DNA of 64,000 nucleotides from Oceanispirochaeta sp. (GTDB lineage Bacteria > Spirochaetota > Spirochaetia > DSM-2461). The stretch spans positions 33,520 to 97,519 of the forward strand of contig CAXXQW010000006.1 in NCBI GenBank assembly GCA_963677615.2, written 5' to 3'. Every line of letters starts with the position of its first letter. Position 1 is the stretch's first letter. The notes beneath the pieces were generated by a model, which was not told the DNA's origin, made no database searches, and saw only the letters and a program-made list of their open reading frames with translations. Shown here in pieces: positions 22,061 through 39,060 of the stretch. A program made the position numbers and the translations under genes.

Positions 22061-23332
22061 ATGCTTTACGCCGCTGTCGGAAATGAACATACGAATCTTT
22101 CCCGCGAAGACCTTCAGAAGATTCTTTACGGAGCACTAGACAAAATTCCTGCCAAAGAAAGGACCCTTATCATTCCTCCTGACATGACCCGTCTTCATTC
22201 CCGGGCGGGCGAACTGACAGAGCTGGCATGGCAATACCTGGGAAAAAAGCTTCAGGCTGTCATCCCGGCGTTGGGTACCCATTTCCCCATGAGCAAAAAT
22301 GAGCTGAAAAAAATGTATGGGCATCTCCCTCTTGAACTGATAAAAGAGCATAACTGGCGATGCGGTCTCACCGAACTGGGAAGATTGAGCGGAAAATTCA
22401 TCAGAGAGATTTCCGGAGAAAAGCTGGATTATGACTGGCCTGTAGAGGTTAACAGGATTCTCATTGATCACCCATGGGATCTTATCCTCTCCATCGGTCA
22501 GGTCGTCCCCCATGAAGTCGTGGGTATGGCTAACTATACCAAAAACATTATGGTGGGAGTAGGCGGTAAAGAAGCGATTGATAAAAGCCATTTCCTTGGC
22601 GCCGTTTGTGGCATGGAAAGGATCATGGGAAGGAGTGAAACACCGGTACGGCAGCTCTTCGACCGGGGAGCCGACGAGTTCTGCAAAGACCTGCCTATTG
22701 TTTATGTTCTCACCGTCGTAGCTACTGATGAGGCTGGGAACAATATCACAAAAGGTATCTTTATCGGCGATGACCGGGAATGCTATGAAAAAGCCGCTGA
22801 ACTCTCCCGAAATGTGAATATAAAAAAGCTTGAGAAAGCCCCGAAAAAGGTTGTGGTGTATCTGGAACCTGAGGAGTTCCGCAGCACCTGGCTGGGCAAC
22901 AAAAGCATCTACCGGACCAGAATGGCCATGGCAGACCGGGGGGAGCTGATAGTTCTGGCTCCGGGTGTTCACTGCTTCGGGGAGAATGAAACCATTGATA
23001 AGCTGATCCGCCGGTACGGATACAGAGGAACGGAACAGACCCTCAAGGCGGTTAAAAATAATCCTGATCTGGCGGAAAATCTCAGCGCCGCAGCCCATCT
23101 GATTCACGGCTCATCGGAAGGACGATTTACCATAACTTATTGTCCGGGAGGCTTGTCCCGTGAGGAGATTGAAAAAGCAGGTTACCAGTTTGGAGATCTG
23201 GAATCTTATAGAAAAAGGTACAATCCGGAAAAGCTGAAAGAAGGGTGGAACACCATGGATAACGATGAGGAAATCTATTTTATTTCCAACCCGGCTCTGG
23301 GCCTGTGGGTATGGGAAGAGAAGTTCTTATAG
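22061..23332 (+). CDS. LarA (lactate racemase) superfamily nickel-pincer enzyme, possibly a sugar-acid 2-epimerase
   Basis: IIPPDMTR.H, PALGTH.PM, HNW, VVPHEVVGMANYTK, HLIHGS. Start trimmed to MLYAAV at 22061 (SD GGAGG). Confidence 0.8.
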   Translation: MLYAAVGNEHTNLSREDLQKILYGALDKIPAKERTLIIPPDMTRLHSRAGELTELAWQYLGKKLQAVIPALGTHFPMSKNELKKMYGHLPLELIKEHNWRCGLTELGRLSGKFIREISGEKLDYDWPVEVNRILIDHPWDLILSIGQVVPHEVVGMANYTKNIMVGVGGKEAIDKSHFLGAVCGMERIMGRSETPVRQLFDRGADEFCKDLPIVYVLTVVATDEAGNNITKGIFIGDDRECYEKAAELSRNVNIKKLEKAPKKVVVYLEPEEFRSTWLGNKSIYRTRMAMADRGELIVLAPGVHCFGENETIDKLIRRYGYRGTEQTLKAVKNNPDLAENLSAAAHLIHGSSEGRFTITYCPGGLSREEIEKAGYQFGDLESYRKRYNPEKLKEGWNTMDNDEEIYFISNPALGLWVWEEKFL

Positions 23333-23333
23333 A

Positions 23334-23810
23334 TCAGATTTCTTTTATGTTCTTTTCCATCATTTCCAGGGAATATGCAGTTATGTCTTGAAAGCAAGAA
23401 AAATCAACAAGATTTTCTGTTAATAGAAACTCAATCCCATGAGTCTTCATGGTTGAAACAATATTGGCATCATGGATCTTTTTCCCTTTTAAATCATGCT
23501 TTATGGCAAGATGTGACAGGATTTCTGATGTAACCCGAGTGTCCTCTTTTATTAAAATAAACTTTTTAAAAACTTCAATATTCTGAAAGACATCTTCAGA
23601 CTTCAATCCCAACCCATTTTTATCCAAAGGTCTGGTAGCAACTACCATATACTCTCTGATGACCTGACCACTAAAAACGGGATGAAAGCCATTCTTGTAT
23701 AGTTCTTTGATAACAGTTTTTGCCGTATAATGATTATTCCGGGAACTATCAGTTGCAGTTATTAGTATATTAGTATCCAGAAATACCGTATCACCTTCCA
23801 TCATCACCAT
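23334..23810 (-). CDS. vapC: PIN-domain toxin (VapC/FitB-like)
   Basis: VFLDTNIL, QVIREY, IHDANI, LLTEN..DF acidic PIN residues. Overlaps the upstream antitoxin. Confidence 0.85.
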   Translation of the reverse strand: MVMMEGDTVFLDTNILITATDSSRNNHYTAKTVIKELYKNGFHPVFSGQVIREYMVVATRPLDKNGLGLKSEDVFQNIEVFKKFILIKEDTRVTSEILSHLAIKHDLKGKKIHDANIVSTMKTHGIEFLLTENLVDFSCFQDITAYSLEMMEKNIKEI

Positions 23811-24021
23811 AGATTTCTTCTCTATTCCAATTTGTATGTAATCCAGTGTGGACAGTAATTAAATTCAGTTCTAGATCATCTGGATCCTGCAGATCCATTT
23901 GAGAAGCTTTCTCTAAAATGAAATGTAATTCACCTTGTAATGACCTATGATGCCTAACAGCCAAACGTTTAAGAGAATGCAGTACTTTTTCATCAACATT
24001 TCGAATATGCAGCGACTTCAT
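23791..24021 (-). CDS. fitA: ribbon-helix-helix antitoxin (FitA-like)
   Basis: SLHIRNVDEKVLHSLKRLAVRHHRSLQGELHFIL matches the FitA/Arc-like RHH pattern. 76 aa, directly upstream of the PIN gene. Confidence 0.85.
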   Translation of the reverse strand: MKSLHIRNVDEKVLHSLKRLAVRHHRSLQGELHFILEKASQMDLQDPDDLELNLITVHTGLHTNWNREEIYGDDGR

Positions 24022-24027
24022 ACCAGT

Positions 24028-24056
24028 ATCATAATGCTACCGCTAAAAGCTGTTAA
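24028..24056 (-). promoter_or_regulatory. sigma70-type promoter of the TA operon (leaderless)
   Basis: TTAACA-17 nt-TATGAT, followed by only 6 nt and then the ATG. No SD. Confidence 0.6.
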
Positions 24057-24090
24057 ATATCCTGATCAATTACAGGAAAATGTTCTGATT

Positions 24091-24282
24091 TTATAGTATT
24101 TTCTGAACCCTGCCGACCTGACCGTCCTGAAGCCGGACTTTGATTCCGTGGGGGTGATGGGGCGAGTTTGTGAGGATATCCGCCACCAACCCTTCGGTGA
24201 GTTTACCCGACCTCTGGTCCTCTTTCAGAACGATTGCGACCTTCAGGCCGGGTTTGATATTGGCGCGTGTTTTTCCATTCAT
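24091..24282 (-). CDS. ywbE: YwbE family protein (DUF2196)
   Basis: IKPGLKV.IVLK.DQRSGKLTEG.V.DILT.S..HPHGIKVRL.DGQVGRV. Confidence 0.9.
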   Translation of the reverse strand: MNGKTRANIKPGLKVAIVLKEDQRSGKLTEGLVADILTNSPHHPHGIKVRLQDGQVGRVQKIL

Positions 24283-24301
24283 AGAGGGATAGTATCACAT
24301 T

Positions 24302-25342
24302 TTACTGTATTTGACTCAGAATCTTCAGAAACAACCGGATCTGCTCGTCCGGAACAGACTTGTCAATTCCCACACAGGAGAGAGAAACCGATGATTCCGG
24401 GCCGCCAGCTTGCTGAACCATACGGGAAAGATCAGCCCGCAGATCCTCTTGTGGCACATCAGCAAGCACAACCGGGGAGTATCTCAGATTCAGCCAGCAC
24501 CCGGGAAGTGCCTTCCTCACAGCTGCGATATCCGAACCGGCTCCGACTTCGGCAAAGACAAGACCGGGAACGCCCGCATACCCTTCGACCACATGCTCCA
24601 TGGACTGACCGCAGTGATGAATTCCGTAGGGCTGAAATAACTGGGCAAGTTTCACATCATATTCCAGAAGGAAATCCCGGTAGCTGTCCAGAGAGATCAT
24701 TTCCACGGAACAGTTGGAATGAACATAGAGGGAAGGAAAATCCAGGTAATTGGTAATAGCAGTCACCCCTCCTGAAAGCCAGTCAGAAACCTCGCTGAGC
24801 CTATTGCCCACCTGAACGGACAGGTCAAAACACTTGTCAAAGAGCTGTCTGGCACCCTGTTCATTCTGGTACATATCGATAAAAACGGAATCCCCCCGGA
24901 TATCCAGAGCAAGATTCAGAATTCCCTGCAGATTAATGGCGGAATGGACAGAACCGTATTCTTTCTGCAGCCAGCTGATCTGATCTTCTACAATCCGCCA
25001 ATCCTCACTATCTGTAAGATTTGGCGCCTGAAAATTCTGCATATCCTCTTCAGAAAGATGGGCACAGATCACTTCCGGCGGAGCATCTTCACTAAACCGG
25101 ACATCGCATCCCATCAGACTGGAATACAAATACCCGCTGGCAATCAGATCACTGCCGAGAAGGGGTCTGGGCTCGGGATGTTCCTCCCCGATGCCCCACT
25201 CTCCGAATCTTTCAAACAGAAATCGCCGCATTTTCACATCAGATGCGATCCTGTATGCAGGGTTATTGAAAAACTCTTCTGTGAACCGGATACCCAGGTT
25301 CTGATTCCACCAGGAGGGGTGGAAGGTTATATCATATTTCAT
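24302..25342 (-). CDS. URO-D/MtaA-fold protein (putative Zn-dependent methyltransferase-like)
   Basis: QGILNLA..IRG...F.DMY, SNCSVEMIS, IHHCG, C-terminal LSCVG. Lacks the HemE RQAGR motif. Start trimmed to MKYDIT (25342). Confidence 0.7.
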   Translation of the reverse strand: MKYDITFHPSWWNQNLGIRFTEEFFNNPAYRIASDVKMRRFLFERFGEWGIGEEHPEPRPLLGSDLIASGYLYSSLMGCDVRFSEDAPPEVICAHLSEEDMQNFQAPNLTDSEDWRIVEDQISWLQKEYGSVHSAINLQGILNLALDIRGDSVFIDMYQNEQGARQLFDKCFDLSVQVGNRLSEVSDWLSGGVTAITNYLDFPSLYVHSNCSVEMISLDSYRDFLLEYDVKLAQLFQPYGIHHCGQSMEHVVEGYAGVPGLVFAEVGAGSDIAAVRKALPGCWLNLRYSPVVLADVPQEDLRADLSRMVQQAGGPESSVSLSCVGIDKSVPDEQIRLFLKILSQIQ

Positions 25343-25361
25343 CTGAATTTCCTTTTTTATT

Positions 25362-26489
25362 TTATGAAATCTTATGAATCCTGTTATAAACGGTTTCCTG
25401 ATCTTCAGGTGTTTCGCAGTAGGTGGTGACAATACATTTGAGTCCGTCCTGCTTCAGTTTTCCGTAATACTCCAGAACTGTTTCGGCAGACCCGACAATT
25501 CTTACATGAAGGACCTTACCGGAACCTGAAAAGGCCTTTCCCAGCAATTCCGGATCATTGGGAGAGGGATCGGTCTGTTTTCCCACTGCACCATCAGCCA
25601 TCAGCAGGGAGGGGATGGACTTTACCAGATCAGCCCTGCCCGACCAGTTTCCGCATGAGTGAAAAACCGGGCCTGAAAAAGACCGGGAGGCTGAAACCAT
25701 GGACGGGATACCGAAACGCGCATAATCCTCATCGCTGAACATCAGGATATTGTCGTCACTGAAGCCTATCCCTTCAAAGGCCCGGGAAGAGGCAAATCCA
25801 TGACCCGGTTTCGCAAGAGCATCACCAATCAGGTTCAGCTGTTGATCCAGGAATTCCTTTTCCATTTCGGCAACCGTATCAATCAGCTCCTTAAGATCTT
25901 CCGGGTGATCAAAGGTTTCATACATAAAAGCTGTGGACTCCATCAGGTAGGAAGAGACAATATTCAATGGAGACTGGGTATCCCCCGGGCTCAGAGGAAT
26001 TTTCCCTTTGGTCTGGTCCAGAAAATATTCAATCATTTCCAGAACCTTCTTTCCTTCGGGACTCTCTCCCACAGAACAGACCCTATGGTTCAGAGCGTCT
26101 TTCGCGCTGGTAAAAGGGCCTTCCACAGCAGGAGCTTGCCCCTCTTTCCAGAGATAGGGAACCCCGAAAGCACTGGAAACCACGCCGATTCCGTACCAGG
26201 GTTCCAGGAAATTGGGAATATCCGCTTTAAAGGCCATACTCTTTTGTAAAGCTGCCAGCTGAAGCCCCAGAGAGAGTTTTCTATCCCTGCATCCCCAGGA
26301 AAACACCTCGGGCACACGGAAACGCCGGTAAACCGCAATGCCGTCCTCAGCCTGCCAGAAACTCCGGCACCGGTCCAGGAGGGCCCTTTCATAATCGGCA
26401 TATCCCTCCAGGTCAAAATCGTCTACAGCCACAGGTTCTACCGAAGTTCCCTGGGAATCCGCCAGGGCGGTATTGAATTCATCTTTCAT
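25362..26489 (-). CDS. URO-D/MtaA-fold protein, second copy
   Basis: EPWYGIGVVSSAFG, DTQSPLNI, SDDNILMFS, VFHSCGNW. Start trimmed to MKDEFN (26489, TAATG overlap with the esterase). Confidence 0.7.
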   Translation of the reverse strand: MKDEFNTALADSQGTSVEPVAVDDFDLEGYADYERALLDRCRSFWQAEDGIAVYRRFRVPEVFSWGCRDRKLSLGLQLAALQKSMAFKADIPNFLEPWYGIGVVSSAFGVPYLWKEGQAPAVEGPFTSAKDALNHRVCSVGESPEGKKVLEMIEYFLDQTKGKIPLSPGDTQSPLNIVSSYLMESTAFMYETFDHPEDLKELIDTVAEMEKEFLDQQLNLIGDALAKPGHGFASSRAFEGIGFSDDNILMFSDEDYARFGIPSMVSASRSFSGPVFHSCGNWSGRADLVKSIPSLLMADGAVGKQTDPSPNDPELLGKAFSGSGKVLHVRIVGSAETVLEYYGKLKQDGLKCIVTTYCETPEDQETVYNRIHKIS

Positions 26490-27292
26490 TATTTCTGTCC
26501 ATTTGTTGTTTGAATTTCGAGCCATCCAAGAGCGAGATGGAACCACTGGGCCACATGGGGATCGGAGAGACGGTTTTTCTCAGGCTGATCCACCTCGGGA
26601 GTTGCCAGGGACAAACCATGTTCTCCCTTGGGAAAAACATGAAGTTCCGCCGCAACTCCTGCTTTTTTCAGGGCAGAAAAGAAATGGAGAGAATTCTCTA
26701 CCGGCACCTCCCTGTCGTCTGCGGTGTGCCATAAAAAGGTAGGGGGAGAGCTCTTTTTTACCTGGAATTCCAGAGAAAAATACTCCCGCAGGGCGGGATC
26801 TCCCCCGGTAAGATGACGCATGGAGCCTTGATGATAATCCTGGCTCATGGAAATCACAGGATAGCTGAGAACCACAGCATCAGGCCGGCAGGTTACGGCA
26901 GGAGAGGAGGCTCCCGCTTCATCCGTAAACTGCTGATCCACAGATGCCCAGTGAACTCCCAGAGAAGCAGCCAGGTGTCCTCCTGCGGAAAACCCGCAGA
27001 CAGCAACCCGCACATACCCCATGGCCCGGACTTCCCGGACAGCTCTGCCCAGAGAGCACAGAGGTTCAAAGCGCAGAGGTTCGTCCCGGGTGTCATCCTT
27101 AACAGGATAACGGAGCACAAAAGGCTGCCACCCGCCGGCGGCATAGGCATCCGCCACCGGTTCAGCTTCCCGGTCGGCCAGCATTTGATACCCGCCGCCA
27201 GGGCAGATGACAACCGCCCCCTTAGCCTGTGGAACCTTTGGAAAGGAGCTAAGTCCTTTCATAGAAAAATCTTTATCCTTCATATATGACAT
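26489..27292 (-). CDS. alpha/beta-hydrolase carbohydrate esterase (PaeX/BD-FAE-like acetylesterase)
   Basis: ICPGGGY, GFSAGGH, SYPVIS, PPTFLWHTADD..VP, HGL. Cytoplasmic. Confidence 0.85.
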   Translation of the reverse strand: MSYMKDKDFSMKGLSSFPKVPQAKGAVVICPGGGYQMLADREAEPVADAYAAGGWQPFVLRYPVKDDTRDEPLRFEPLCSLGRAVREVRAMGYVRVAVCGFSAGGHLAASLGVHWASVDQQFTDEAGASSPAVTCRPDAVVLSYPVISMSQDYHQGSMRHLTGGDPALREYFSLEFQVKKSSPPTFLWHTADDREVPVENSLHFFSALKKAGVAAELHVFPKGEHGLSLATPEVDQPEKNRLSDPHVAQWFHLALGWLEIQTTNGQK

Positions 27293-27317
27293 GGCAACCT
27301 TACTTGAGAGTTAAAAA

Positions 27318-28628
27318 TCAGTTTCCCGTTGCCAGGGGCATCAGTTTATCCGGAAGGAACATAACAATACCGGGCACATAGGAGATAATCAGAAGCACGG
27401 CGATCATAATCATAAAGAAGGGCAGCAGCTTTTTAACCAGTTTCTCAATCGGCACTCCCGACACAGCAGACCCCACAAAAAGGGTTCCCCCTACGGGAGG
27501 TGTAATAAGGCCGATTCCCAGGTTCAGAATCATCACAACACCAAAGTGGACAGGATCCATTCCGATGGTCCGGGCTATGGGGAGGAGAATGGGAGTCGCC
27601 ACAAGAATAATGGCGGACATATCCATGATAGTCCCCAGGACAAGCATAACAATATTGAGAATGATCATAATGACAATCTTGTTCTGAGTCAGACTGAGAA
27701 TTCCGTTGGCAACCAGTTCAGGCATGTGAAGATAAGTCAGCAGCCAGCCGAAAACCTGAGAAGTGGAAATCAGGATCATAACAATAGCCAGAGTATTGAG
27801 TGACCGTTCCATCAGATGCCAGATTTTTTTGGGTGTCAGTTCCTTATAGACTATAATTCCCACAAGGATGGCCCATACAACCGCAATAGCAGCAGACTCG
27901 GTAGCTGTAAAAATACCGCTCACAACTCCTACAACAACAATAAGGACTGTAATCAGCCCCCAGATGGAATCTCCAAGGGTTCTGAACAGGGTTTTAAAGC
28001 TAAACGCATCTCCTTTGGGGTATTTATGACGGACTGCTTCGATATAACTGAAAACCATCAGGGCAATTCCCAAAAAAACACCGGGTATAATCCCCCCCAG
28101 AAACAGGCGTCCCACCGAAACACCGCCGGCAACCATGGCATACATAACCATATTGTGACTGGGTGGAATCAAAAGCCCCTGAACCGAACTGGCCATGGTA
28201 ATATTGGTGGCAAACTCCTTGTCATACCCTTCCTTGGCCATCATGGGAATAAGAATGGTACCCAGCGAAGCAGTATCAGCTGTGGATGACCCGGAGATTC
28301 CTCCGAAAAACATGGAAGCCATAACATTTACCGTAGCAAGACCTCCCCGCATCCATCCGATAATCGCATTGGAAAGCTTGATCAGGCGGTTGGAAATTCC
28401 CCCTGCCCCCATGAGCTCTCCGGCAATAATAAAGAAAGGCACTGCCATAAGGGTGTAGACATTCACTCCTTTTACCATGAGCTGAGCTATCTGCATGATG
28501 GGTAGTCCCAGATAGATGGTTGTCACGATACTGGAGACACCGATAGCAAATGCGATAGGGACTCTCAGAACCAGAAAAATAAAAAATGACCCCACCAGAA
28601 TGAGGGTGGCTGTAGTATTAAGATCCAT
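27318..28628 (-). CDS. dctM: TRAP transporter large permease
   Basis: AVPFFI.AGELM, SMFFGGISGSS.AD, LIPPSH, GLITPPVG. Confidence 0.95.
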   Translation of the reverse strand: MDLNTTATLILVGSFFIFLVLRVPIAFAIGVSSIVTTIYLGLPIMQIAQLMVKGVNVYTLMAVPFFIIAGELMGAGGISNRLIKLSNAIIGWMRGGLATVNVMASMFFGGISGSSTADTASLGTILIPMMAKEGYDKEFATNITMASSVQGLLIPPSHNMVMYAMVAGGVSVGRLFLGGIIPGVFLGIALMVFSYIEAVRHKYPKGDAFSFKTLFRTLGDSIWGLITVLIVVVGVVSGIFTATESAAIAVVWAILVGIIVYKELTPKKIWHLMERSLNTLAIVMILISTSQVFGWLLTYLHMPELVANGILSLTQNKIVIMIILNIVMLVLGTIMDMSAIILVATPILLPIARTIGMDPVHFGVVMILNLGIGLITPPVGGTLFVGSAVSGVPIEKLVKKLLPFFMIMIAVLLIISYVPGIVMFLPDKLMPLATGN

Positions 28629-28630
28629 TA

Positions 28631-29203
28631 TTAATTATCCTCGCAGTGTTGGATGATTTCTGCAGCATCTTCCACAAGAGCTTCCGCTTCTTCTTCCTGA
28701 CATCGGGTTATTTCAAGCTTCTGCCCTGTGGCCATCCGGTGGCAGAAGTTAATAAAACGTTCTATTTCCATCAGCATTATGGCGGCACCTGATATGGGGC
28801 CGGCCAAAAAAAGCCAGCTAGACTTGATAGACATCCCGGTAATGACATTCCGATTGGCAATGCTCAGGAATTTACTCCCGTATATAAACAGAAAAAGGCC
28901 GAAACCGAACATGAGAATCTGTCCGAATGCCCTTATGACAGGCATAGCTTTATCCGGAACCAGGTAGTCGATAATCTGCATACGGATATGAGTGTCTTTC
29001 CGGATGGCCAGAGCGGCGCTTATAAGGGACATGTACACCATAAACATAAGAACAACCGGTTCACCCCATGTCATAGGTGATTTGATAAAATAGCGGTTTA
29101 TAATAACCCAGGTTGTAATAACAATCATTCCGATAAATCCGATTTTACAGATTGTCAGAAAGATCCAGTAAACCGTATCGAAAAATTTTTTAACTGCTTT
29201 CAT
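28631..29203 (-). CDS. dctQ: TRAP transporter small permease
   Basis: Four TM segments, RY....TWGE, HIRMQI; lies between dctP and dctM. Confidence 0.9.
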   Translation of the reverse strand: MKAVKKFFDTVYWIFLTICKIGFIGMIVITTWVIINRYFIKSPMTWGEPVVLMFMVYMSLISAALAIRKDTHIRMQIIDYLVPDKAMPVIRAFGQILMFGFGLFLFIYGSKFLSIANRNVITGMSIKSSWLFLAGPISGAAIMLMEIERFINFCHRMATGQKLEITRCQEEEAEALVEDAAEIIQHCEDN

Positions 29204-29336
29204 TTGAACTCCTCTCTCCCCATTCCCTGATTAAACTTTTAATACAGGCTCCCCTCCGGACAACAGCAAGAGGGGGGCCGGAGATAGTCAATCAGGAAAT
29301 GACAGACCTCCTCGGAAGGAGGCAGTATTCACTCAA

Positions 29337-30359
29337 TTACTTAGAGAGAATCGCTTCGTAATAGTCTTCCAGACCTTCGATATATTTCAGCACAACAGGT
29401 TTGGCCAGTTCGACATAAGCGGCTTTATCGGAGACTTCGGAAACACTGGCACCGGCAGCTTTGATCTTTTCGATAAGCTCACCGTCAAGCTTTTCAATAG
29501 AAGCGCGGTTCCACTCTTCCGCTTCTTTACCGGCTTCCATGATAATCGCCTGATCTTCAGCATCCAGTTTGTTGAATACCGCTTCGCTCATAAGAACGAT
29601 AGAGGGGCTGTAGGTATGTCCGGAAAGGGTGTAGTTGGGCGCAACTTCAAAGAAGTTATTGGAAAAGTAACCTGAGTAGGGCTGTTCCGCTCCATCTACT
29701 GTTCCAGCCTGAAGTGCAGAATAAAGCTCACCGAAACTGATGGGAGTAGGCTGTACACCCAGAGCCTGGAAAGTCTCAGACATCAGCTGGGTAGTGGGAA
29801 CTCTCAGTTTCAGACCTTTCAGATCTTCCACGCTGCTGATTTCAATTCCGGGTTTGGTAAAAATATGACGGGCTCCTTCGTCCAGGTAAAAAAGTCCAAC
29901 CATTCCGGTGTTGGTTTCCTGAGGTTCTTTCAGGAACTCTGCCCCGATTTCACTGTTCAGAACATTCCAAAGATGTTCTCTGTCCCGGAATATAAAGGGA
30001 AGACCGAAAAGGGTCAGTTTCTGTACGCCAAAATCACCCAGTGAGTTGGTATTTCCGCGGCACATATCGATGGCGCCGCCGCCCATCTGAAGAGACTGAT
30101 ACATGGTTTTTTCATCACCCAGCTGACCGGCAGGGAAAACCTCGATTTTAATGCGGCCGTCAGACTTTTCATAAACAAGCTCAGCAAACTTGGAATCCAC
30201 CTGTTCCATAATATGATCTTTGGGGTTCAGTTCCGCAAATTTAAAGGTGTAGCTCTTTTTTGCTCCGTCAGAAGCACCACTTTCACCCTGGCCATTGGAC
30301 CAGGCCAGTACAGAAACCATCATTAATACAGCAGATAGCAAAACAATTCTTTTTTTCAC
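29337..30359 (-). CDS. dctP: TRAP transporter substrate-binding protein
   Basis: IEVFPAGQLG.E, LPFIFRD, DLKGLKLRVP, PTPISFGELYSALQ.G.VDGAE. GTG start; signal peptide ending WS-NGQGE. Confidence 0.95.
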   Translation of the reverse strand: MKKRIVLLSAVLMMVSVLAWSNGQGESGASDGAKKSYTFKFAELNPKDHIMEQVDSKFAELVYEKSDGRIKIEVFPAGQLGDEKTMYQSLQMGGGAIDMCRGNTNSLGDFGVQKLTLFGLPFIFRDREHLWNVLNSEIGAEFLKEPQETNTGMVGLFYLDEGARHIFTKPGIEISSVEDLKGLKLRVPTTQLMSETFQALGVQPTPISFGELYSALQAGTVDGAEQPYSGYFSNNFFEVAPNYTLSGHTYSPSIVLMSEAVFNKLDAEDQAIIMEAGKEAEEWNRASIEKLDGELIEKIKAAGASVSEVSDKAAYVELAKPVVLKYIEGLEDYYEAILSK

Positions 30360-30524: not shown

Positions 30525-32438
30525 TCAGGCCTTTTTCTGGGAATTTTTCCACTGGGTGGGGGACATTCCCGTCTCTCTTTTAAAAAGCGAACTGAATGAG
30601 TTGGGAGTCTGGTACCCCACATCCAGGGCAATCTCAGTGACAGATTTTTCGGTTGTATTCAGAAGATTCTTGGCCTGATTCATTCTGACAACCGTCAGAT
30701 ATTCCGAATAGGAGTAGCCGCTGCTCTTTTTGAAGATCGATTTGAAATAGGATTCGCTGATGCAGACAGCATCGGCCACATCCTTTACCGAAATGGCTTC
30801 GGCATAGTGTTCGTTGATATACTCTTTCGCCTTGATCACCAGATTTTTGGACCGGTTGGAGTGAGACCGGGATACAATCTGGATAATATCTTCCGTGCGG
30901 GACTTCAGCCACTCCAGCAGCTGCGCCTGGCTCCGGATAATAGCCGATTCGGAGAAAAGTTTTTCACTGAGCTCCAACAGCTCATCCACATCTCCCCCTC
31001 CGGCAATGGCCGACTCCACCATAGTACCCAAAAGCTCATAAGTACGGACTTTTTGGAGTTTGTCGGTTTCACTGCCGTAACTGAACAGGAGGCTCATCAG
31101 TTTCTGAAGCTGATCCTGGGCTTTCACACTATCTCCCATACGGATAGCCGAAAGAAAGGCGTTTTTCTCTTTCAGAGGGTACTCCCGCCGGGGCTCCTCA
31201 TCCTGAAGATCCGTAATATGGACAACCTGCCCGCCCTCTATACGGTTTGCGTATTCAACAGCTGTGACCGCCTCGTGGTAAGACCGTTTCAGATCCTCCA
31301 GCCCCTTATAGGTCCGGCCGATTCCGAAATCATAATTTCGCAGCATTTCTACGGAACTCTTCAGGTTCTCGCAAATCCGGATGGTTTCACTCCTGCACAA
31401 ACCTGTATCTGAGGAAACAGGAAGGCATATACCCAGCATATCCGTTCCCATGGGCATAAGGATATACTGATTCGCCCCGAGGGTTTTATCCAGAAGGCTT
31501 GCAGCATCCCGGAGCAGAAGGTCGTTAAAATCCCTGCTTCCGCTCTCCTTGTCTTTCCCCGAAGAGTTTTGTTTCAGCACAATAAAGGTGTTGATATCTT
31601 CCGGTATATGAAGAAGCTTCAGCATATCAGCAACCTGCTGGTGCATCTGGACATCCAGGGACAGATCCTGAATCAGATCTTCCCGTATATAGGCAACAAC
31701 TTTCTGCATCCTGGTTCTGTTCTCCCTGATCTCCCGGGCAATTCCGTACCCCAGAAAAGAGACGCTCACCAGAGCTCCCACATAATAGATCCACCACTGA
31801 TGTATCAGCGCTCCGCAGAAGAACGTGAGAGCAAAAATCATTTTGCCTGTGTTATAGAGATAAACCTTGTTCAGAAAGCCTTTTCCCCTGGCATGATTTA
31901 GTCTGTACCTCTGAATTTTGGCGATCGAATCCAGAAAGAGGATGGTTGCCAGGACAAGATAGATGGCAATGGTCACCTCTCTGCCATAGTAAGGATCAGA
32001 GCGGCTGGGAGTCACAGAATCGTATACGTTCAAATTCCCGATGGTAAATATGACTTCCGCACCGGTTGTCGTTACCGTATTGAAAATACTGTAGACAATG
32101 CCGATCAGAATGCCTGTAATAATCAGAGGCCAGAAAAGGGAGCGCCTGTTTTTGGCAGGGCGGGAAAAATCAGCCAGGATCACCATGGGAATGGTAATGG
32201 AACTGAAAATAAAGGAACGGATATTATTGATGATCACCGGAGCAGGATGCCCTCCCGAAAGGATCTGAACCGGACGGCCAATGAGAAACAGACCGAAAGA
32301 GATTAGAAAAACCGTAAAGTAACGGATTGAGTTGTCTTTCGACTCTTCAATAAGAACAAAATAGAGAACATAAATTAAAAGTATTATACCCGTCAGAGCC
32401 GGGATAAGTATGTTTCCGAAAATTTCCAGTACTGGCAT
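30525..32438 (-). CDS. membrane-anchored AraC-family transcriptional regulator
   Basis: About 230 aa N-terminal multi-TM region, central degenerate GGDEF/CdaR-like domain (GIG.....LEDL..SY.EA..A), C-terminal AraC double HTH (YFKSIFKK...IALDVGY...SFSSLFKR.TGMSP..W). Confidence 0.88.
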   Translation of the reverse strand: MPVLEIFGNILIPALTGIILLIYVLYFVLIEESKDNSIRYFTVFLISFGLFLIGRPVQILSGGHPAPVIINNIRSFIFSSITIPMVILADFSRPAKNRRSLFWPLIITGILIGIVYSIFNTVTTTGAEVIFTIGNLNVYDSVTPSRSDPYYGREVTIAIYLVLATILFLDSIAKIQRYRLNHARGKGFLNKVYLYNTGKMIFALTFFCGALIHQWWIYYVGALVSVSFLGYGIAREIRENRTRMQKVVAYIREDLIQDLSLDVQMHQQVADMLKLLHIPEDINTFIVLKQNSSGKDKESGSRDFNDLLLRDAASLLDKTLGANQYILMPMGTDMLGICLPVSSDTGLCRSETIRICENLKSSVEMLRNYDFGIGRTYKGLEDLKRSYHEAVTAVEYANRIEGGQVVHITDLQDEEPRREYPLKEKNAFLSAIRMGDSVKAQDQLQKLMSLLFSYGSETDKLQKVRTYELLGTMVESAIAGGGDVDELLELSEKLFSESAIIRSQAQLLEWLKSRTEDIIQIVSRSHSNRSKNLVIKAKEYINEHYAEAISVKDVADAVCISESYFKSIFKKSSGYSYSEYLTVVRMNQAKNLLNTTEKSVTEIALDVGYQTPNSFSSLFKRETGMSPTQWKNSQKKA

Positions 32439-32447
32439 ATGCGCTGT

Positions 32448-32530: not shown

Positions 32531-32580
32531 TTGACAAATCTGGTTAACCAGTTATATTAATCTAACACGATGGTTAACCA
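32531..32580 (+). promoter_or_regulatory. sigma70 promoter with two FadR-type operators
   Basis: TTGACA (32531)-16 nt-TATATT (32553). Perfect palindrome TGGTTAACCA at 32541-32550 (in the spacer) and again at 32571-32580. Confidence 0.75.
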
Positions 32581-32608
32581 ATCTTAAGAAAGTGGCAGGA
32601 GCTTTTCC

Positions 32609-33142
32609 TTGGAGAAAACAGAGACTTTCCGGTTCAAAACAAATATGGATGAAAAAACATTCAGAGATTTTGCTTTTTTTAACAGTTTCCTGTCCCGGGG
32701 CCGATGGAAGAGTCTGGCTCTTTTTCCTGTGGCAATGGCAGGTATGGGCCTTTTGAATTTAAAAACCGGAAGCCCCTTTCTCTTTAAACTTTTCCTTGTA
32801 CTGGCAGCAGCCGGTCCTGTTTTGTACATTCTTTTTTTTAAAATCACCCTGAAGAATCAGATAAAAGCCAATAATCTGAAAGAAGGCCGCCTTGTCTATA
32901 CAGCCCTTTTCAGGGATGGTCTGATCGAAATAGCCAATGACCATGAAAAACAGCCTGTAGAATGGGAGAATATCTACAGGATCTACAGATATAAGGATTA
33001 TTTCTACCTTTATGCCACCCTCACCCATGCGTTTATCCTGCCTGCAAAGGGGTTGATAGAAGGATCTTCGATTGAAAATTTCTGGAAATTTGCAAAACAG
33101 ATGGCACCGGAAGGAAGGAGCAAATCCTATAAAAAAGCTTGA
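32609..33142 (+). CDS. YcxB family membrane protein
   Basis: Two TM helices then a C-terminal YcxB-like domain (VEWENIYRI...DYFYLY.....AFILP). TTG start with SD AGGAG. Confidence 0.7.
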   Translation: MEKTETFRFKTNMDEKTFRDFAFFNSFLSRGRWKSLALFPVAMAGMGLLNLKTGSPFLFKLFLVLAAAGPVLYILFFKITLKNQIKANNLKEGRLVYTALFRDGLIEIANDHEKQPVEWENIYRIYRYKDYFYLYATLTHAFILPAKGLIEGSSIENFWKFAKQMAPEGRSKSYKKA

Positions 33143-33209
33143 TGGAACCGTAAGAAATCCGGTTTTTCAGGTTGATAATCCCCTGGAAAACCTTTTTTTA
33201 CGAACAAAC

Positions 33210-33250
33210 TGGTTAACCAATTACGGCATATTAAAATCTGGTAAACCAGA
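33210..33250 (+). promoter_or_regulatory. two further FadR-type operators upstream of the regulator
   Basis: TGGTTAACCA at 33210-33219 and TCTGGTAAACCAGA at 33237-33250. Confidence 0.7.
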
Positions 33251-33276: not shown

Positions 33277-34017
33277 ATGGGAAATGAGACTTCAGCCATA
33301 GTGTCCATAGAGCTATTTGAAAACAGGGAAACAGAACTGGCTCCGGAAGATTACATTCTCACAAGAATCAGGGAACTGGTGGTATCCGGCCAGCTTCATC
33401 CCGGGGCAAAACTCCCTTCCGAAAGGGCTCTGGCGGAAAAGCTGGAAACCACCAGAGGAACAATCCGAAAGGCTCTGCAGAAACTGGACTTCTACGGCCT
33501 GGTGGAGATTTCTCCCCAGAGCGGTACCAGAATCGCCAATCTTCATGCGGGGACAGTGGAACAGCTAATGCAGTCCATCCCGGTCAGTAAAAACCAGAAG
33601 ATGGCGGATCTTATGGAAGCCCGTTTTATCCTGGATGTTCAGTGCGCCAGACTGGCCGCCGAAAGACGGTCCGAGACAGACCTGGAACTTATCGAGAAGA
33701 GACAGGAAGAGTTTCTCTCCCGCTTTTACGGCAAAGAAGACTACCTGGAAGAGGATTACCTTTTTCATCTGGCCATAGCCCATGCAACAGGCAATCATGT
33801 TCTGGTATCCCTTTTCAGCCAGCTGACTCCCAGAATCGTCATGCAGGACCAGCCCCATCTGAAGCAGAAGGATAAGGACTTTTCCCGCATTCCCATGGAA
33901 CATATCCGCATACTCGAAGCCATACGGCAGGGAAATCCCGACGAAGCCGAAGCAGCTATGATCCAGCATCGGGAATGGGCTTTAAAGCGGGTTTTTTCAA
34001 GTAAAGAGAAGGAATAA
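33277..34017 (+). CDS. GntR/FadR-family regulator (UxuR/ExuR-like by context)
   Basis: PGAKLPSERALAE.L..TR.TIR.AL..L wHTH, FCD domain (D..FH.AIA.A.GN..L; EH..I..AI). Confidence 0.92.
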   Translation: MGNETSAIVSIELFENRETELAPEDYILTRIRELVVSGQLHPGAKLPSERALAEKLETTRGTIRKALQKLDFYGLVEISPQSGTRIANLHAGTVEQLMQSIPVSKNQKMADLMEARFILDVQCARLAAERRSETDLELIEKRQEEFLSRFYGKEDYLEEDYLFHLAIAHATGNHVLVSLFSQLTPRIVMQDQPHLKQKDKDFSRIPMEHIRILEAIRQGNPDEAEAAMIQHREWALKRVFSSKEKE

Positions 34018-34057
34018 TCCTTCTAAACATACACAGGAATCAAATCAGGAGTAAAAA

Positions 34058-35539
34058 ATGAGTCAAGTAACAGATAAAGTACTGAATGCATCAGTCGCAG
34101 CGGAAAAAGGCTGTGTAAAACAGAAGAGGCCGGAGAGGATCCTCCAGTTCGGTGAAGGGAACTTCCTCCGCTGCTTTATAGACTGGCAGGTGGATATTCT
34201 GAACGAAAAAAAAGGTCTGAATGCGGGAGTCGTAGTCGTTCGTCCCATAGATACAGACTTCCCCCCCCTGCTGGATACCCAGGACGGGCTTTATACCTCC
34301 ATCATACGGGGTTACGATGAGCAGGGTGAACTGAAAAATGAAAAGCGTCTGATATCCTGTATTACCCGGGAAATCCCCGTTTACAAAGAGTATGACAAGT
34401 TCCTCGCTCTGGCGGAAAATCCGGATCTGCGGTTTATCGTGTCCAACACCACAGAAGCGGGGATTGCCTACAACCCTGAAGACAGATACGATGACCGTCC
34501 ACAGTCTGCCTATCCGGCCAAACTGACCCGGTTTCTCCATGAGAGATTCAAAAAGTTCGGAGGATCCTCCGATTCGGGTTTTATCCTGATTCCCTGCGAG
34601 CTGATTGATTACAACGGAGACGCCCTCAAAGAGATTGTCCTGAAGTATGCAGATCTCTGGAATCTGGAGGAGGAATTTGTCTCCTGGATTGAAAAAGACA
34701 ATACCTTCTGCTCCACCCTGGTGGACCGCATTGTTACCGGATACCCCCGGGATGAAGTGGAAGAACTGACGAAAGAACTGGGATACAAAGACAATTTTAT
34801 TACAACCGGAGAATACTTTCACCTCTTTGTTATTCAGGGACCAGACTTCGTGGGAGAAGAACTTCACCTGAAAGGCAGCGGTCTGAATATCAAGCTGGTG
34901 GAAGACTTAAAGCCCTACAAACAGAGAAAAGTGGGAATCCTGAACGGCTGTCATACAGCCCTGGTTCCCGTTGCCTATCTCTGCGGCATAGAGCTGGTGA
35001 AAGACGCTGTGGAAAATCCAGATCTTGCCGCCTTCATCCAGAAGCTCCTGGACAATGAGATTATCCCCAACCTGGGAATGCCGGTGGATTATCTGAAGGA
35101 CTATGCCGAAACGGTTCTGAACCGGTTCAGAAACCCTTTTATCAACCATCAGCTGCTTTCCATTTCTCTCAACTCCATGACCAAGTTTAAAACAAGACTG
35201 CTACCCCAGTTTATGGAATACTATAAATCCAATTCCTCCGTCCCCCCTCTGATGTCACTCTCCCTGGCAGCTCTCATCTGCTTCTACAGAGGAACCCTGG
35301 ACGGAAAAGAGTATCCCGTCAACGACGACAAACCCTTCCTGGATCTGTATAAGGAACTCTGGCAAAAGGATCCTGAATCCCTTGAAGATGCCATGGACAT
35401 TGCTGGCAGGATTCTCTCGCTAGATGATCACTGGGGTGTTTCTCTCAAAAGCCTGGATGGTCTTCACCAGAAAGTGGGTGAAGATATTCTGAAAATCATC
35501 ACCAATGGTATGACAAAAACACTGGAGGAGTACCTTTGA
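34058..35539 (+). CDS. uxaB: tagaturonate reductase (altronate oxidoreductase)
   Basis: LQFGEGNFLR.F.DW, SNTTEAGI, PCELI..NG..L, TLVDRIVTG, KV.ILNG.HT, RF.NPFI.H.L.SISLNS. Confidence 0.93.
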   Translation: MSQVTDKVLNASVAAEKGCVKQKRPERILQFGEGNFLRCFIDWQVDILNEKKGLNAGVVVVRPIDTDFPPLLDTQDGLYTSIIRGYDEQGELKNEKRLISCITREIPVYKEYDKFLALAENPDLRFIVSNTTEAGIAYNPEDRYDDRPQSAYPAKLTRFLHERFKKFGGSSDSGFILIPCELIDYNGDALKEIVLKYADLWNLEEEFVSWIEKDNTFCSTLVDRIVTGYPRDEVEELTKELGYKDNFITTGEYFHLFVIQGPDFVGEELHLKGSGLNIKLVEDLKPYKQRKVGILNGCHTALVPVAYLCGIELVKDAVENPDLAAFIQKLLDNEIIPNLGMPVDYLKDYAETVLNRFRNPFINHQLLSISLNSMTKFKTRLLPQFMEYYKSNSSVPPLMSLSLAALICFYRGTLDGKEYPVNDDKPFLDLYKELWQKDPESLEDAMDIAGRILSLDDHWGVSLKSLDGLHQKVGEDILKIITNGMTKTLEEYL

Positions 35540-37041
35540 AACCCGAACTGTTTTTTCTGGATGAAAAAGATAATGTGGGAATCACCTTTGCCGATCTTAC
35601 AGCAGGATCATCTGTAACTGCCGGACAAGCGGAAGTTACAGTGGTCAGCGACATTCCCAAGGGACATAAAGTAGCTGTCAGAGAGATAAAGGAGGGAGAA
35701 GCTGTCCTGAAATACGGAGCGGTAATAGGCTATGCCCTCTCGGATATAAAAACGGGAGAACATGTTCATGTTCATAACATTAAGACCGGCCTTTCCGGAC
35801 AGACCGAGTACAAATATGAACCGGAGATAGATGCCTCGGAAGAGACTCCCCTCACATCGGTTCCCCGTTTATACAAAAGGAAGAACGGCAAAGCCGGGAT
35901 CCGGAATGAACTGTGGATTCTCCCCACAGTGGGCTGTGTCAACGGGACGGCCCAGCAGATTCTTCAGCAGTTCCTTATGAAAAAAGGAAAAGACGGTCTG
36001 GCCGGTGTAGACGGGGTGTACTGCTTTACCCACCCCTACGGCTGTTCCCAGCTGGGAGAGGATCATGTGAGGACCCGCAGGGTTCTTCAGAATATGGCCC
36101 TTCATCCCAATGCGGGTGGAGTCCTGATTCTGGGGCTCGGCTGCGAGAACAACCAGATCAAAGCCTTTCAGGAAACCATGCCGGAAGCACCGGATCCCGC
36201 CAGAATCAGATACCTGGAATCCCAGAGTGTGGAAGATGAAATTGAAGCGGGCATTGCCTGCCTGGAAGAACTTCTGGAAGAGGCATCAAAAGACGAAAGG
36301 ACGCCCGGCTCCTGGTCGGATCTTGTGATCGGCCTGGAGTGCGGCGGCTCGGATGCCTTCTCGGGAATTACAGCCAACCCCCTGATCGGAGCCGTATCAG
36401 ACAGGGTGATCAGATCGGGAGGAACAACAGTTCTGACCGAAGTCCCCGAGATGTTCGGAGCTGAAAATGTTCTGATGAAACAGTGTGCTGATGAATCCAT
36501 CTTTGAAATGACCAAAGAGATGATAGAAAGCTATAAAAGATATTACCTTTCCCACAATCAGCCTGTGTATGAAAACCCCTCCCCCGGAAACAAGGCCGGC
36601 GGAATTACCACACTGGAGGATAAATCTCTGGGATGCATCAGGAAGTCCGGAAAGTCCGAAATTGTGGATGTTGTTAAAATGGACGGGATGATCCAAAAGA
36701 CCGGACTCAACCTTCTGTATGCACCGGGGAATGATATTGTAGCCACCACGGCACTGGGTACTGCCGGATGCCAGCTGGTTCTTTTCTCTACCGGAAGGGG
36801 AACGCCTCTGGGTGGATTTATACCCACATTGAAGATAGCCAGCAATACAGCTCTGGCGGAACACAAAAAGAAGTGGATCGACTTTAACGCGGGGATCATT
36901 GCAGACGGAACCTCGGGCATGGCCGAAGCAGCCGGGCTTCTGCTGGAAAAAATCCTCAGAGTTGTGAACGGAGAAGAGACCGCTGCAGAAAAAAGCGGTA
37001 TCAGAGAAATAGCCATTTTCAAAGACGGCGTAACCCTTTAA
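35536..37041 (+). CDS. uxaA: altronate dehydratase
   Basis: N-terminal SAF domain (IPKGHKVA...VHVHN), PTVGCVN, HPYGCSQLG, LECGGSD, NPSPGNKAGG.TTLE.KSLG. Confidence 0.95.
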   Translation: MKPELFFLDEKDNVGITFADLTAGSSVTAGQAEVTVVSDIPKGHKVAVREIKEGEAVLKYGAVIGYALSDIKTGEHVHVHNIKTGLSGQTEYKYEPEIDASEETPLTSVPRLYKRKNGKAGIRNELWILPTVGCVNGTAQQILQQFLMKKGKDGLAGVDGVYCFTHPYGCSQLGEDHVRTRRVLQNMALHPNAGGVLILGLGCENNQIKAFQETMPEAPDPARIRYLESQSVEDEIEAGIACLEELLEEASKDERTPGSWSDLVIGLECGGSDAFSGITANPLIGAVSDRVIRSGGTTVLTEVPEMFGAENVLMKQCADESIFEMTKEMIESYKRYYLSHNQPVYENPSPGNKAGGITTLEDKSLGCIRKSGKSEIVDVVKMDGMIQKTGLNLLYAPGNDIVATTALGTAGCQLVLFSTGRGTPLGGFIPTLKIASNTALAEHKKKWIDFNAGIIADGTSGMAEAAGLLLEKILRVVNGEETAAEKSGIREIAIFKDGVTL

Positions 37042-37062
37042 ACCACAGGAGAACTGAAAGAT

Positions 37063-38457
37063 ATGAAATTTATCCATGATGATTTTTTACTGGAGAATGC
37101 CTTTGCCAGAAGGCTTTACCACGATTATGCGGAACACCAGCCGATTGTTGACTACCATTGTCACCTGAATCCGAAAGAGATAAGGGACAATATCAGCTGG
37201 GAGAATATTACCCAGGTATGGCTCTATGGAGACCACTACAAATGGCGTACCATGAGAAGCAACGGTATCAGCGAAGATTTCTGTACCGGAGATAAATCCG
37301 ACAGGGAAAAGTTTCAGAAATTCGCCGAAACCATGCCCTATCTTCTCAGAAACCCCATGTACCACTGGAGCCACCTGGAGCTGGCCCGCTATTTTGGAGT
37401 GGATGACACCCTCCTCTCAGGTGAAACCGCTGAGGAAATCTGGAACAGAACCGGAGATGTTCTTAAAGGGGGACTTTCAGCCCGGAAACTCATGACCGAC
37501 AGCAAAGTGGTTGTCTCCTGTACAACCGATGACCCTATCGATTCACTGGAACATCACAAAGCTCTGAAAGAGGAAGGATTTGAAGTGAAGATTCTTCCTG
37601 CCTGGCGGCCTGATAAATCCATGGCCGTCGAAAAGGATTTCTGGAACTCCTACATAGACCAGCTGGCTGAAGCGGCAGACAGGACCATCGGATCCTACGG
37701 AGATCTGATTGAAGCCCTGAGAATCCGCCATCAGTACTTTCACGATGCGGGCTGCCGGCTCTCCGACCATGGTCTGGATACGGTGTATGCCTCGGATTTT
37801 ACGGATGCTGAAATAACAGCCATTTTTAATAAGGCCCGCTCCGGAGCCGATGTGACACCGGAAGAGGCAGATACGTTCAAAACAGCCATGATGCTGGAAT
37901 TCGGACGGATGGATGCCGAAAAGGGCTGGACCAAACAGCTCCATATCGGGGCCTTAAGGAGCAACAACTCCCGGCTTTTTGCCAAACTGGGGCCTGATAC
38001 AGGATTTGACTCCATTGACGATCAGAACTATGCCCGTCCCCTTGCTTCGTATATGGACAGGCTCGACAGGGAGAACAGACTCCCTAAAATGATTATTTAC
38101 AATCTGAACCCCAGAGACAACGAAGTGATCGCCACCATGCTGGGAAATTTCCAGGACGGCAGTGTGGCCGGAAAGATTCAGATGGGGTCAGGCTGGTGGT
38201 TCCTGGATCAGAAAGACGGTATGGAGAGGCAGATGGAAGCCCTTTCGCAGCTGGGACTCCTAAGCCGCTTTGTGGGCATGCTCACAGACAGCCGCTCCTT
38301 TCTCTCCTACACCAGACATGAATACTTCAGAAGGGTTCTCTGCAATATCCTGGGAAAGGATATGGAAAAAGGACTGATCCCCATGGATTTCAATCTGGTG
38401 GGATCCATGGTGGAAAACATCTGTTTTAAAAACGCCGACACCTATTTCGGTTTCTGA
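37063..38457 (+). CDS. uxaC: glucuronate/galacturonate isomerase
   Basis: DYHCHL, DHYKWR.MR.NG, NPMYHW.HLEL, WWFLDQ..GM, GMLTDSRSFLSY.RHEYFRR. Confidence 0.97.
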   Translation: MKFIHDDFLLENAFARRLYHDYAEHQPIVDYHCHLNPKEIRDNISWENITQVWLYGDHYKWRTMRSNGISEDFCTGDKSDREKFQKFAETMPYLLRNPMYHWSHLELARYFGVDDTLLSGETAEEIWNRTGDVLKGGLSARKLMTDSKVVVSCTTDDPIDSLEHHKALKEEGFEVKILPAWRPDKSMAVEKDFWNSYIDQLAEAADRTIGSYGDLIEALRIRHQYFHDAGCRLSDHGLDTVYASDFTDAEITAIFNKARSGADVTPEEADTFKTAMMLEFGRMDAEKGWTKQLHIGALRSNNSRLFAKLGPDTGFDSIDDQNYARPLASYMDRLDRENRLPKMIIYNLNPRDNEVIATMLGNFQDGSVAGKIQMGSGWWFLDQKDGMERQMEALSQLGLLSRFVGMLTDSRSFLSYTRHEYFRRVLCNILGKDMEKGLIPMDFNLVGSMVENICFKNADTYFGF

Positions 38458-38480
38458 CAGTGAAAATCTGATGAGTTAAC

Positions 38481-38513
38481 AGGCGGCTTTGTTTTTTCAA
38501 AGCCGTCTTTTTT
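38481..38513 (+). terminator. rho-independent terminator after uxaC
   Basis: AGGCGGCTTTG / CAAAGCCGTCT stem followed by TTTTT. Confidence 0.75.
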
Positions 38514-38562
38514 CTGCTCTGAATGTGCTATGATGGTTTCCATTATGAAAAAAGGAGATACC

Positions 38563-39060
38563 ATGACAATCCTGATTTTAATGGGCGTAAGCGGATGCGG
38601 CAAAACAACCCTGGGAAAAGCCCTGTCAGAAAAGCTGAACCTGCCTTACTTCGAAGCGGATGATCTTCATCCTGAAGAGAATATCAGAAAAATGAGCAGC
38701 GGCATTCCCCTTACAGACGATGACCGCCGGCCCTGGCTCGAACGTATCCGGAGTATCATAAACACTCAGCAGAATACCGGTGAATCTGCAGTGATCTCCT
38801 GTTCGGCCCTGAAAGAATCATACAGGCAGTATCTGCAGGAAGGACTCTCAGACTCTCCCGTATGGGTCTACCTGAAAGGCAGCTTTGACACTCTTGCGGC
38901 CCGCTTGGAAAACAGAAAGAACCATTTTTTTAAAAAAGAGATGCTGGAAAGTCAGTTTGCCGCACTGGAAGAGCCGGAATACGGGATAGTGGTGGATATA
39001 GAGCTCCCCCTGGAAGAGAAAATCAGTCTGATAATGGAAAAACTGGAAGATTCACCCTGA
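38563..39060 (+). CDS. gntK: gluconokinase
   Basis: MGVSGCGKTT, EADDLHP.ENI.KM..G.PL.DDDR.PWL, SCSALK..YR, HFF...L.SQF..LE.P. Start trimmed to MTILIL (SD AGGAG); own extended -10 TGcTATGAT. Confidence 0.93.
   Translation: MTILILMGVSGCGKTTLGKALSEKLNLPYFEADDLHPEENIRKMSSGIPLTDDDRRPWLERIRSIINTQQNTGESAVISCSALKESYRQYLQEGLSDSPVWVYLKGSFDTLAARLENRKNHFFKKEMLESQFAALEEPEYGIVVDIELPLEEKISLIMEKLEDSP

Follow-up and report, generated by a model that had tools for sequence, protein, structure and literature searches.

The closest described relatives of the gene considered here are the gluconate epimerases GntE1 of Corynebacterium glutamicum and GntE2 of Thermotoga maritima, members of groups 19 and 20 of the LarA homologues (LarAH), whose enzymology was shown in 2020 (Desguin et al., PMC7583248). 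GntE2, the protein of structure 4NAR, is a D-gluconate 2-epimerase (Desguin et al. 2020, PMC7583248). GntE1, GntE2 and LarAH15 all epimerise free mannonate in vitro, with Michaelis constants (Km) of the GntE enzymes for mannonate between 9 and 120 mM. For Thermotoga, Rodionova et al. 2012 (cited in PMC7583248 and PMC6978723) proposed a hexuronate route that passes through mannonate to gluconate, and LarAH group 18 was labelled 'G2E3, putative hexonate epimerase' in a supplement that gives the hexonate function as a hypothesis (PMC7583248). Here we analyse a LarA-homologue gene (22061-23332, plus strand) in a 64,000-nucleotide stretch of DNA, the window, from Oceanispirochaeta sp. (assembly GCA_963677615.2, contig CAXXQW010000006.1, positions 33,520 to 97,519). 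In the window the gene lies upstream of uxaB, uxaA, uxaC and gntK (34058-39060, plus strand). A sequence-only reading had located the genes at these positions and suggested that the LarA homologue and the gluconokinase could carry glucuronate carbon from mannonate to gluconate instead of through UxuA; our calls agree with these locations. Our best reading, which we hold with moderate confidence, is that the LarA homologue inverts C2 of D-mannonate in a nickel-pincer-nucleotide (NPN)-dependent reaction, giving D-gluconate, on which GntK and Gnd then act in turn.

The LarA homologue compared with described epimerases

We placed the LarA homologue on the basis of hidden Markov model scores, sequence and fold searches of the PDB, and published sequence logos. 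The protein scores 645 bits with NF052594, the equivalog model named 'nickel-dependent putative hexonate epimerase' (cut-off 500), and 42 bits with the Pfam domain Lar_N (PF09861, DUF2088; cut-off 23.3); malate-racemase, LarAH10 and lactate-racemase models all give at most 51 bits. Placed against true lactate racemases, a comparison that the sequence-only reading had proposed, it does not cluster with LarA: the lactate racemase model NF033504 gives 20.7 bits (cut-off 460), and GntE2 is its best match by both sequence and fold. Specifically, 4NAR is the sole PDB sequence match at E <=1 (E 2e-31) and the top Foldseek match of the predicted AlphaFold model (predicted local distance difference test, pLDDT, 88), with a template-modelling (TM) score of 0.82. 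The structures of true LarA, Mar2 and the Isosphaera racemase match the fold at TM 0.52-0.69 only; 5HUQ, 2YJG and 9EID are at TM 0.66-0.69, and Foldseek assigns these and 4NAR alike a probability of 1.00.

The active site points in the same direction. The cofactor-binding residues of LarA, R75, K184 (the covalent tether) and H200 (a nickel ligand), correspond to R44, K161 and H177, whose counterparts in 4NAR are likewise R, K and H, and the catalytic residues D72, H108, H174 and K298 correspond to D41, H74, H151 and K281; both sets are invariant in 12 diverse homologues. The specificity positions (F175, F176, W358 and T359 in LarA) read E152, V153, A345 and H346, and this E-V-A-H pattern is the GntE signature (PMC11770544). 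W277 and N280 are also present, and the residues fit the logo that the PMC7583248 supplement gives for group 18 (signature D R H H E V K H .. W L N K S .. A A L I H S). The family is large, counting 8000 or more proteins at E <=1e-20 and 586 or more species, and unusually conserved, at 55-61% identity across phyla; the LarA homologue itself is 55-71% identical to members in many phyla, and its nearest named homologues come from Spirochaetales metagenome-assembled genomes. Altogether, the product of 22061-23332 is, from these comparisons, a member of LarAH group 18, a putative NPN-dependent sugar-acid 2-epimerase family, and the reaction that it catalyses is probably the interconversion of D-mannonate and D-gluconate.

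Set beside the rest of group 18 (NF052594), the window protein itself shows no difference, its length (~423 aa), score and signature residues being the same; what differs is the gene arrangement, in that the window gene is apparently monocistronic and lies away from uxuB, gnd and gntK. With GntE2 (LarAH20) it shares the fold, the cofactor-binding and catalytic residues, the Glu that opens the loop after the second catalytic His, and a Trp in helix 11, and the route proposed for GntE2 follows the same pathway logic, in which mannonate would be converted to gluconate and passed on to GntK and Gnd. However, the two proteins are only ~22-30% identical, GntE2 has Gly before the catalytic Lys where the window protein has Asn280, and helix 14 reads AAAHLIHGSS in the window protein and AAHVINVRG in GntE2. 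The genomes differ as well, since Thermotoga has UxaE and lacks UxaB/UxaA whereas this genome has UxaB/UxaA and lacks UxaE; of the Thermotoga-type route, UxaC, gluconokinase and Gnd are present here, UxuA is absent and none of the 10 enolase-superfamily proteins scanned exceeds the ManD cut-off. GntE1 (LarAH19) belongs to the same GntE branch and has a uronic-acid-linked genomic context, but it forms a separate phylogenetic group, and its Km for mannonate is 120 mM, so that its native substrate was doubted by its authors. A further isomerase pathway that reaches 6-phosphogluconate without UxuA is the mannonate kinase/6-phosphomannonate 2-epimerase route of Lactobacillus suebicus (PMC6978723), in which the order of the steps is reversed, the genes are not assigned and the candidate link to LarA is hypothetical only.

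Gene neighbourhoods across phyla and among relatives

To compare neighbourhoods, ORFs (open reading frames) were called in 80 family loci, the neighbours were clustered by BLAST and the top clusters were named. Informative loci were the 42, from about nine phyla, in which 3 kb or more flank the LarAH18 gene on either side. Among these, a D-mannonate oxidoreductase of the short-chain dehydrogenase/reductase (SDR) type is found in 28, usually directly upstream (377 bits for the representative, cut-off 281), and gnd is likewise found in 28, usually just downstream; uxaC (22 loci), uxaE (19) and a PfkB kinase (18) are less frequent. Of the 42, 37 have one or more of these neighbours (uxuB, gnd, uxaC, uxaE, a kinase) and 5 have none; the phyla in which the pattern is seen include Bacteroidota, Planctomycetota, Acidobacteriota, Ignavibacteriota, Spirochaetota, Rhodothermota, Fidelibacterota and Pseudomonadota. 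The family neighbourhoods thus set LarAH18 between a mannonate-forming reductase and gnd or gntK. uxaB and uxaA occur in none of the family loci examined, and altronate, considered as a substrate, was rejected on this ground.

A PfkB kinase lies between the SDR-type uxuB and the LarAH18 gene in L055, L075, L087, L092, L093 and L094 and in about 20 other loci across phyla. This LarAH18-linked PfkB and the KdgK encoded next to Eda in the same genomes fall into separate clades (support 99/94, on long branches), making the former a candidate for a non-orthologous gluconate kinase or for a mannonate kinase. The PfkB-type kinase of the present genome is of the KdgK type only.

Closer to home, LarAH18 exceeds its cut-off in 42 of 61 genomes (60 relatives and this genome), including all ten genus mates. 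A gntK that is 58-64% identical to that of the window directly follows LarAH18 in six genus mates (G001, G002, G004, G005, G008 and G009), and gnd follows it in six other relatives. In the present genome uxaC and gntK are each single-copy, and gntK comes directly after uxaC. Through these adjacencies, LarAH18 to gntK in the genus mates and gntK to uxaC here, the three genes are therefore tied together, and the association of the LarA homologue, gntK and uxaBAC is beyond chance. Moreover, every one of the 29 UxaC-positive relatives that are at least 90% complete carries UxuA, LarAH18 or both, and eight, this genome included, carry LarAH18 only.

Genome complement and proposed pathway

The genome assembly comprises 18 contigs and is 95% complete. 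The sequence-only reading had noted that uxuA and the cofactor genes larB, larC and larE are missing from the window and had taken a genome with uxuA and without larBCE as speaking against the route; the genome has the opposite complement. larE, larC and larB lie outside the window, contiguous and intact, on contig C9 (C9:507811-510628), their products scoring 303 (LarE), 458 (LarC) and 299 bits (LarB), all over cut-off, and a search of the whole 95%-complete genome found no UxuA. Seven LarA homologues are encoded, only one of which is of group 18 and none of groups 19 or 20. gnd is present (64% identity to a representative), and a kdgK-eda pair is found elsewhere in the genome; no Edd exceeds its cut-off.

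Two ways around the lack of UxuA were considered and rejected. A shunt by UxaE, from fructuronate to tagaturonate and on through UxaB and UxaA, was dismissed because UxaE has no tblastn match in the genome. A ManD acting as a hidden mannonate dehydratase was dismissed after a scan of 10 of the 12 enolase-superfamily genes, the short C14:182934 and C6:430801 not being included: the best score is 261 bits against a cut-off of 550, and the scanned proteins are glucarate-, galactarate- or galactonate-dehydratase-like.

In the scheme that we infer, hexuronates would be imported, probably by the TRAP system neighbouring the uxa genes, and isomerised by UxaC. Galacturonate carbon would then pass through UxaB and UxaA to 2-keto-3-deoxygluconate (KDG) and on to KdgK and Eda, while fructuronate derived from glucuronate would be reduced to mannonate by an enzyme for which only candidates can be named as yet. 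LarB, LarC and LarE would supply the NPN cofactor, tethered to Lys161 of the epimerase, and by analogy with LarA and GntE, His74 and His151 would take turns at removing and restoring the C2 proton, with the hydride carried for the moment by the cofactor, inverting C2 of D-mannonate to give D-gluconate. GntK would phosphorylate the gluconate, and Gnd would decarboxylate the product to ribulose-5-phosphate. The route would thereby stand in for the missing mannonate dehydratase and fill the hole that its absence leaves in the uronic-acid catabolism of the organism. It would deliver uronate carbon to ribulose-5-phosphate with a redox balance unlike that of the KDG route, which may be of some interest for the fermentation of pectin and xylan. 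Because such a route is already published and the family is already named by the NCBI annotation pipeline, the gain lies in annotation quality and not in principle; the comparison of about 40 informative loci from roughly nine phyla and of 60 relatives adds support for the idea that group 18 acts on the mannonate/gluconate pair. This genome is particular in that the genes are dispersed, uxuAB has been lost, gntK has moved beside uxaC and the reductase step has no assigned gene.

Weighing the proposed route

The proposal of the sequence-only reading is thus supported by the group-18 assignment, by larBCE, by the lack of uxuA and by the family neighbourhoods, with caveats that concern the reductase gene, co-transcription and co-regulation. 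Several observations weigh against the route. For its reductase step, a genome search for uxuB found no recognised fructuronate reductase. Among 25 SDR matches in the genome the best scores 170 bits against the NF006132 cut-off of 281, and the uxuA-linked uxuB of the genus has no orthologue in this genome, its best match being 28-30% identical. The two long-chain dehydrogenases at C6:292512 and C15:152323 most resemble the mannitol 2-dehydrogenase 1LJ8 and score ~345 bits with the fructuronate-reductase model, whose cut-off is 603. At the level of the locus, the LarA gene lies 10.7 kb from uxaB and has a promoter-like site of its own, the operators of the uxa promoter region do not recur near 22061 or 38563, and a terminator-like hairpin separates uxaC from gntK. 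Among the relatives, 14 of the 61 genomes have LarAH18 without UxaC, showing that a link to the isomerase pathway is not obligatory for the enzyme, and most genus mates carry UxuA and LarAH18 together, showing that it is not a simple substitute for UxuA. From these two distributions it follows that the enzyme is better regarded as a mannonate/gluconate branch point than merely as a UxuA substitute. Finally, we found no assay of any group-18 enzyme in the literature searched.

As for the reductase, C6:292512 and C15:152323 are, by similarity, candidate fructuronate reductases. Genus mates carry a uxuA-uxuB pair, both members of which are absent from this genome. UxuA is missing from the syntenic relative G007 as well, where the top two matches to fructuronate reductase are of the same mannitol-dehydrogenase-like type; there are two such paralogues each in G007 and in this genome and none in G002, a distribution that gives a weak hint of substitution.

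Three other explanations of the LarA homologue have to be set against epimerisation of free mannonate. That it is a true lactate racemase is effectively refuted: Pfam returns only the generic Lar_N, and some sources call close homologues 'nickel-dependent lactate racemase', but the dedicated model stays far below its cut-off (20.7 bits against 460), no LarA structure is among the PDB sequence matches at E <=1, the substrate loop has E-V instead of F-F, and no lactate genes lie nearby in the window. It is unlikely, if less remote, that the enzyme acts on another hexonate or 2-hydroxy sugar acid and is functionally unconnected to uxaBAC, the 17-kb proximity then reflecting a neighbourhood rich in sugar-acid genes. 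The lack of a recognised fructuronate reductase and of a shared operator, the separate transcription units, and LarAH18 without UxaC in 14 relatives would all fit this explanation, as would a genome rich in sugar-acid enzymes (seven LarA homologues and 12 enolase-superfamily proteins) and the fact that both NCBI and Desguin 2020 specify 'hexonate' only. Nevertheless, the family is linked to a mannonate-forming SDR and to gnd or gntK and never to uxaB/uxaA, gntK adjoins LarAH18 in six genus mates, and the GntE residue signature is present.

The remaining explanation keeps the net route and changes the order of its steps: a kinase would act first to make 6-phosphomannonate, which the LarA homologue would epimerise to 6-phosphogluconate. 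An orphan 6-phosphomannonate 2-epimerase activity has been found in Lactobacillus suebicus extracts (PMC6978723), the characterised GntE enzymes have a high Km for free mannonate (9-120 mM), and many loci have a dedicated PfkB kinase between uxuB and the epimerase, in a clade apart from the Eda-linked KdgK (99/94). In addition, K175, R287, H349 and R355 are invariant in group 18 and different in GntE2. Against this order stand the in vitro epimerisation of free mannonate by GntE1, GntE2 and LarAH15, the nature of the partner kinase in this genus, which is a P-loop gluconokinase of the GntK type, and the statement, from a source cited in PMC6978723, that E. coli GntK does not use mannonate. We therefore consider the kinase-first order quite improbable. 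The same low standing attaches to its general form, in which the group-18 LarA homologues would be 6-phosphomannonate 2-epimerases and the kinases that travel with them, P-loop GntK-like in this genus and of the PfkB clade in Bacteroidota, Planctomycetota and Ignavibacteriota, would be mannonate kinases. If it were true, two orphan activities of Lactobacillus suebicus would receive genes, and the high Km of GntE for free mannonate would be explained.

Layout, transcription and regulation in the window

The putative epimerase gene is intact and encodes 423 aa. Its long ORF opens at 21968 (plus strand), LarA homologues are 421-427 aa long, and their alignment begins at residue 32 of the long ORF; we place the start at the ATG at 22061 because the start of the homologue alignment, the promoter-like site TTGACA-17-TATGTT (22002-22030, plus strand, a consensus match only) and the ribosome-binding site GGAGGAG (22046-22052, plus strand) all sit there. 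Upstream lies an ORF of 171 aa to which the family scan assigned no family (21380-21895, plus strand). The arrangement suggests, as far as the DNA can be read, that the LarA-homologue gene is monocistronic.

The uxa operon is headed by a GntR/FCD-family regulator gene (33277-34017), followed on the plus strand by uxaB (34058-35539), encoding tagaturonate reductase (altronate oxidoreductase; NF002969, 668 bits, cut-off 359), uxaA (35536-37041), encoding altronate dehydratase (Pfam SAF, GD_AH_second and, at E 3e-94, GD_AH_C), and uxaC (37063-38457), encoding the glucuronate/galacturonate isomerase (PF02614, 673 bits). An intrinsic-terminator-like hairpin with an 11-bp stem and a T run follows at 38481-38514 (plus strand; -22.9 kcal/mol, z -2.95). 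gntK comes next (38563-39060, plus strand, its ORF opening at 38530) and encodes a P-loop gluconokinase of the GntK/IdnK type (TIGR01313, 178 bits, cut-off 114) that matches E. coli GntK 1KNQ at E 1.5e-39; its likely start is the ATG at 38563, with an RBS (ribosome-binding site) AAAGGAG and an extended -10-like sequence, TGCTATGAT (38526-38534), upstream. The hairpin between uxaC and gntK is kept in the syntenic relative G007, which lacks gntK, and it is therefore doubtful that gntK is the last gene of the uxa operon. gntK lies ~15 kb from the LarA gene, a loose link in this genome, and each of the two looks separately transcribed.

TGGTTAACCA, a palindrome that resembles an operator, is found at 32541, 32571 and 33210, with TGGTAAACCA at 33239. 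This motif cluster is confined to 32541-33248 and is unique in the genome to the uxa promoter region; a genome-wide motif search found no TGGTTAACCA operator near 22061 or 38563, and shared regulation through the FCD operator was rejected accordingly.

Between the LarA-homologue gene and the uxa operon the minus strand carries, after the PIN-toxin cassette described below, two URO-D-like genes (24302-26546), an alpha/beta hydrolase gene (26489-27292), genes for a TRAP transporter with DctM, DctQ and DctP (27318-30359; Pfam DctM, DctQ, DctP), a candidate hexuronate importer, and a membrane AraC regulator gene (30525-32438), followed on the plus strand by a YcxB-like gene (32609-33142). Downstream of gntK, a convergent sugar ABC transporter occupies 39124-43025 on the minus strand. 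Among solved structures, the TRAP binding protein is closest to 4N8Y (E 8e-54) and 4X8R (E 2e-51), which have been described bound to galacturonate and glucuronate (PMC11668362). Since relatives of the binding protein bind uronates, we regard the region from 22 to 39 kb as a loose uronate-utilisation neighbourhood and not as a chance juxtaposition.

In the genus mate G005 (L146, G005:C1:3724000-3743999, ~5345-14105), an operon begins with a URO-D-like gene that shares 62% identity with the one at 25362-26546 of the window; behind it come TRAP DctPQM, uxuA, a GFO-type oxidoreductase gene, a 6-phosphogluconolactonase-like gene and uxuB. The makeup of this operon ties the URO-D/TRAP operon of the window (24302-30359) to mannonate metabolism.

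Additional features of the genome and locus

The sugar-acid repertoire of the genome is unusually broad. The 12 enolase-superfamily genes include four to five glucarate-dehydratase-like paralogues just below the equivalog cut-off, one L-talarate/galactarate dehydratase and one galactonate dehydratase. Two of the LarA homologues belong to the uncharacterised 'group 22' (NF052515, 519-528 bits), at C15:212400-216100 (L157) and C9:380806-381312 of this genome (G000). The former adjoins a glucarate-dehydratase-like enolase-superfamily gene (707 bits) and an SDR gene, which suggests that it may be an aldarate-related epimerase.

The 3' end of the LarA-homologue gene is abutted by a PIN-toxin (VapC-like) cassette, listed at 23334-23810 on the minus strand and, in the comparison with relatives, at 23334-24056. 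The cassette is absent from the syntenic relative G007 (L127, G007:C2:1075000-1094999) and occupies the position that gntK holds in six genus mates. In G007, in turn, the 171-aa ORF and the LarA gene are separated by two features that are missing in the window, a gene for a 475-aa PAS histidine kinase and an ORF of 88 aa (10528-12223 of the locus). The LarA proteins of G000 and G007 are 67% identical, and the flanking genes (E1, E2, E3, DctM, DctQ and DctP) are 85-95% identical; either the LarA gene evolves fast or one of the two lineages has replaced it.

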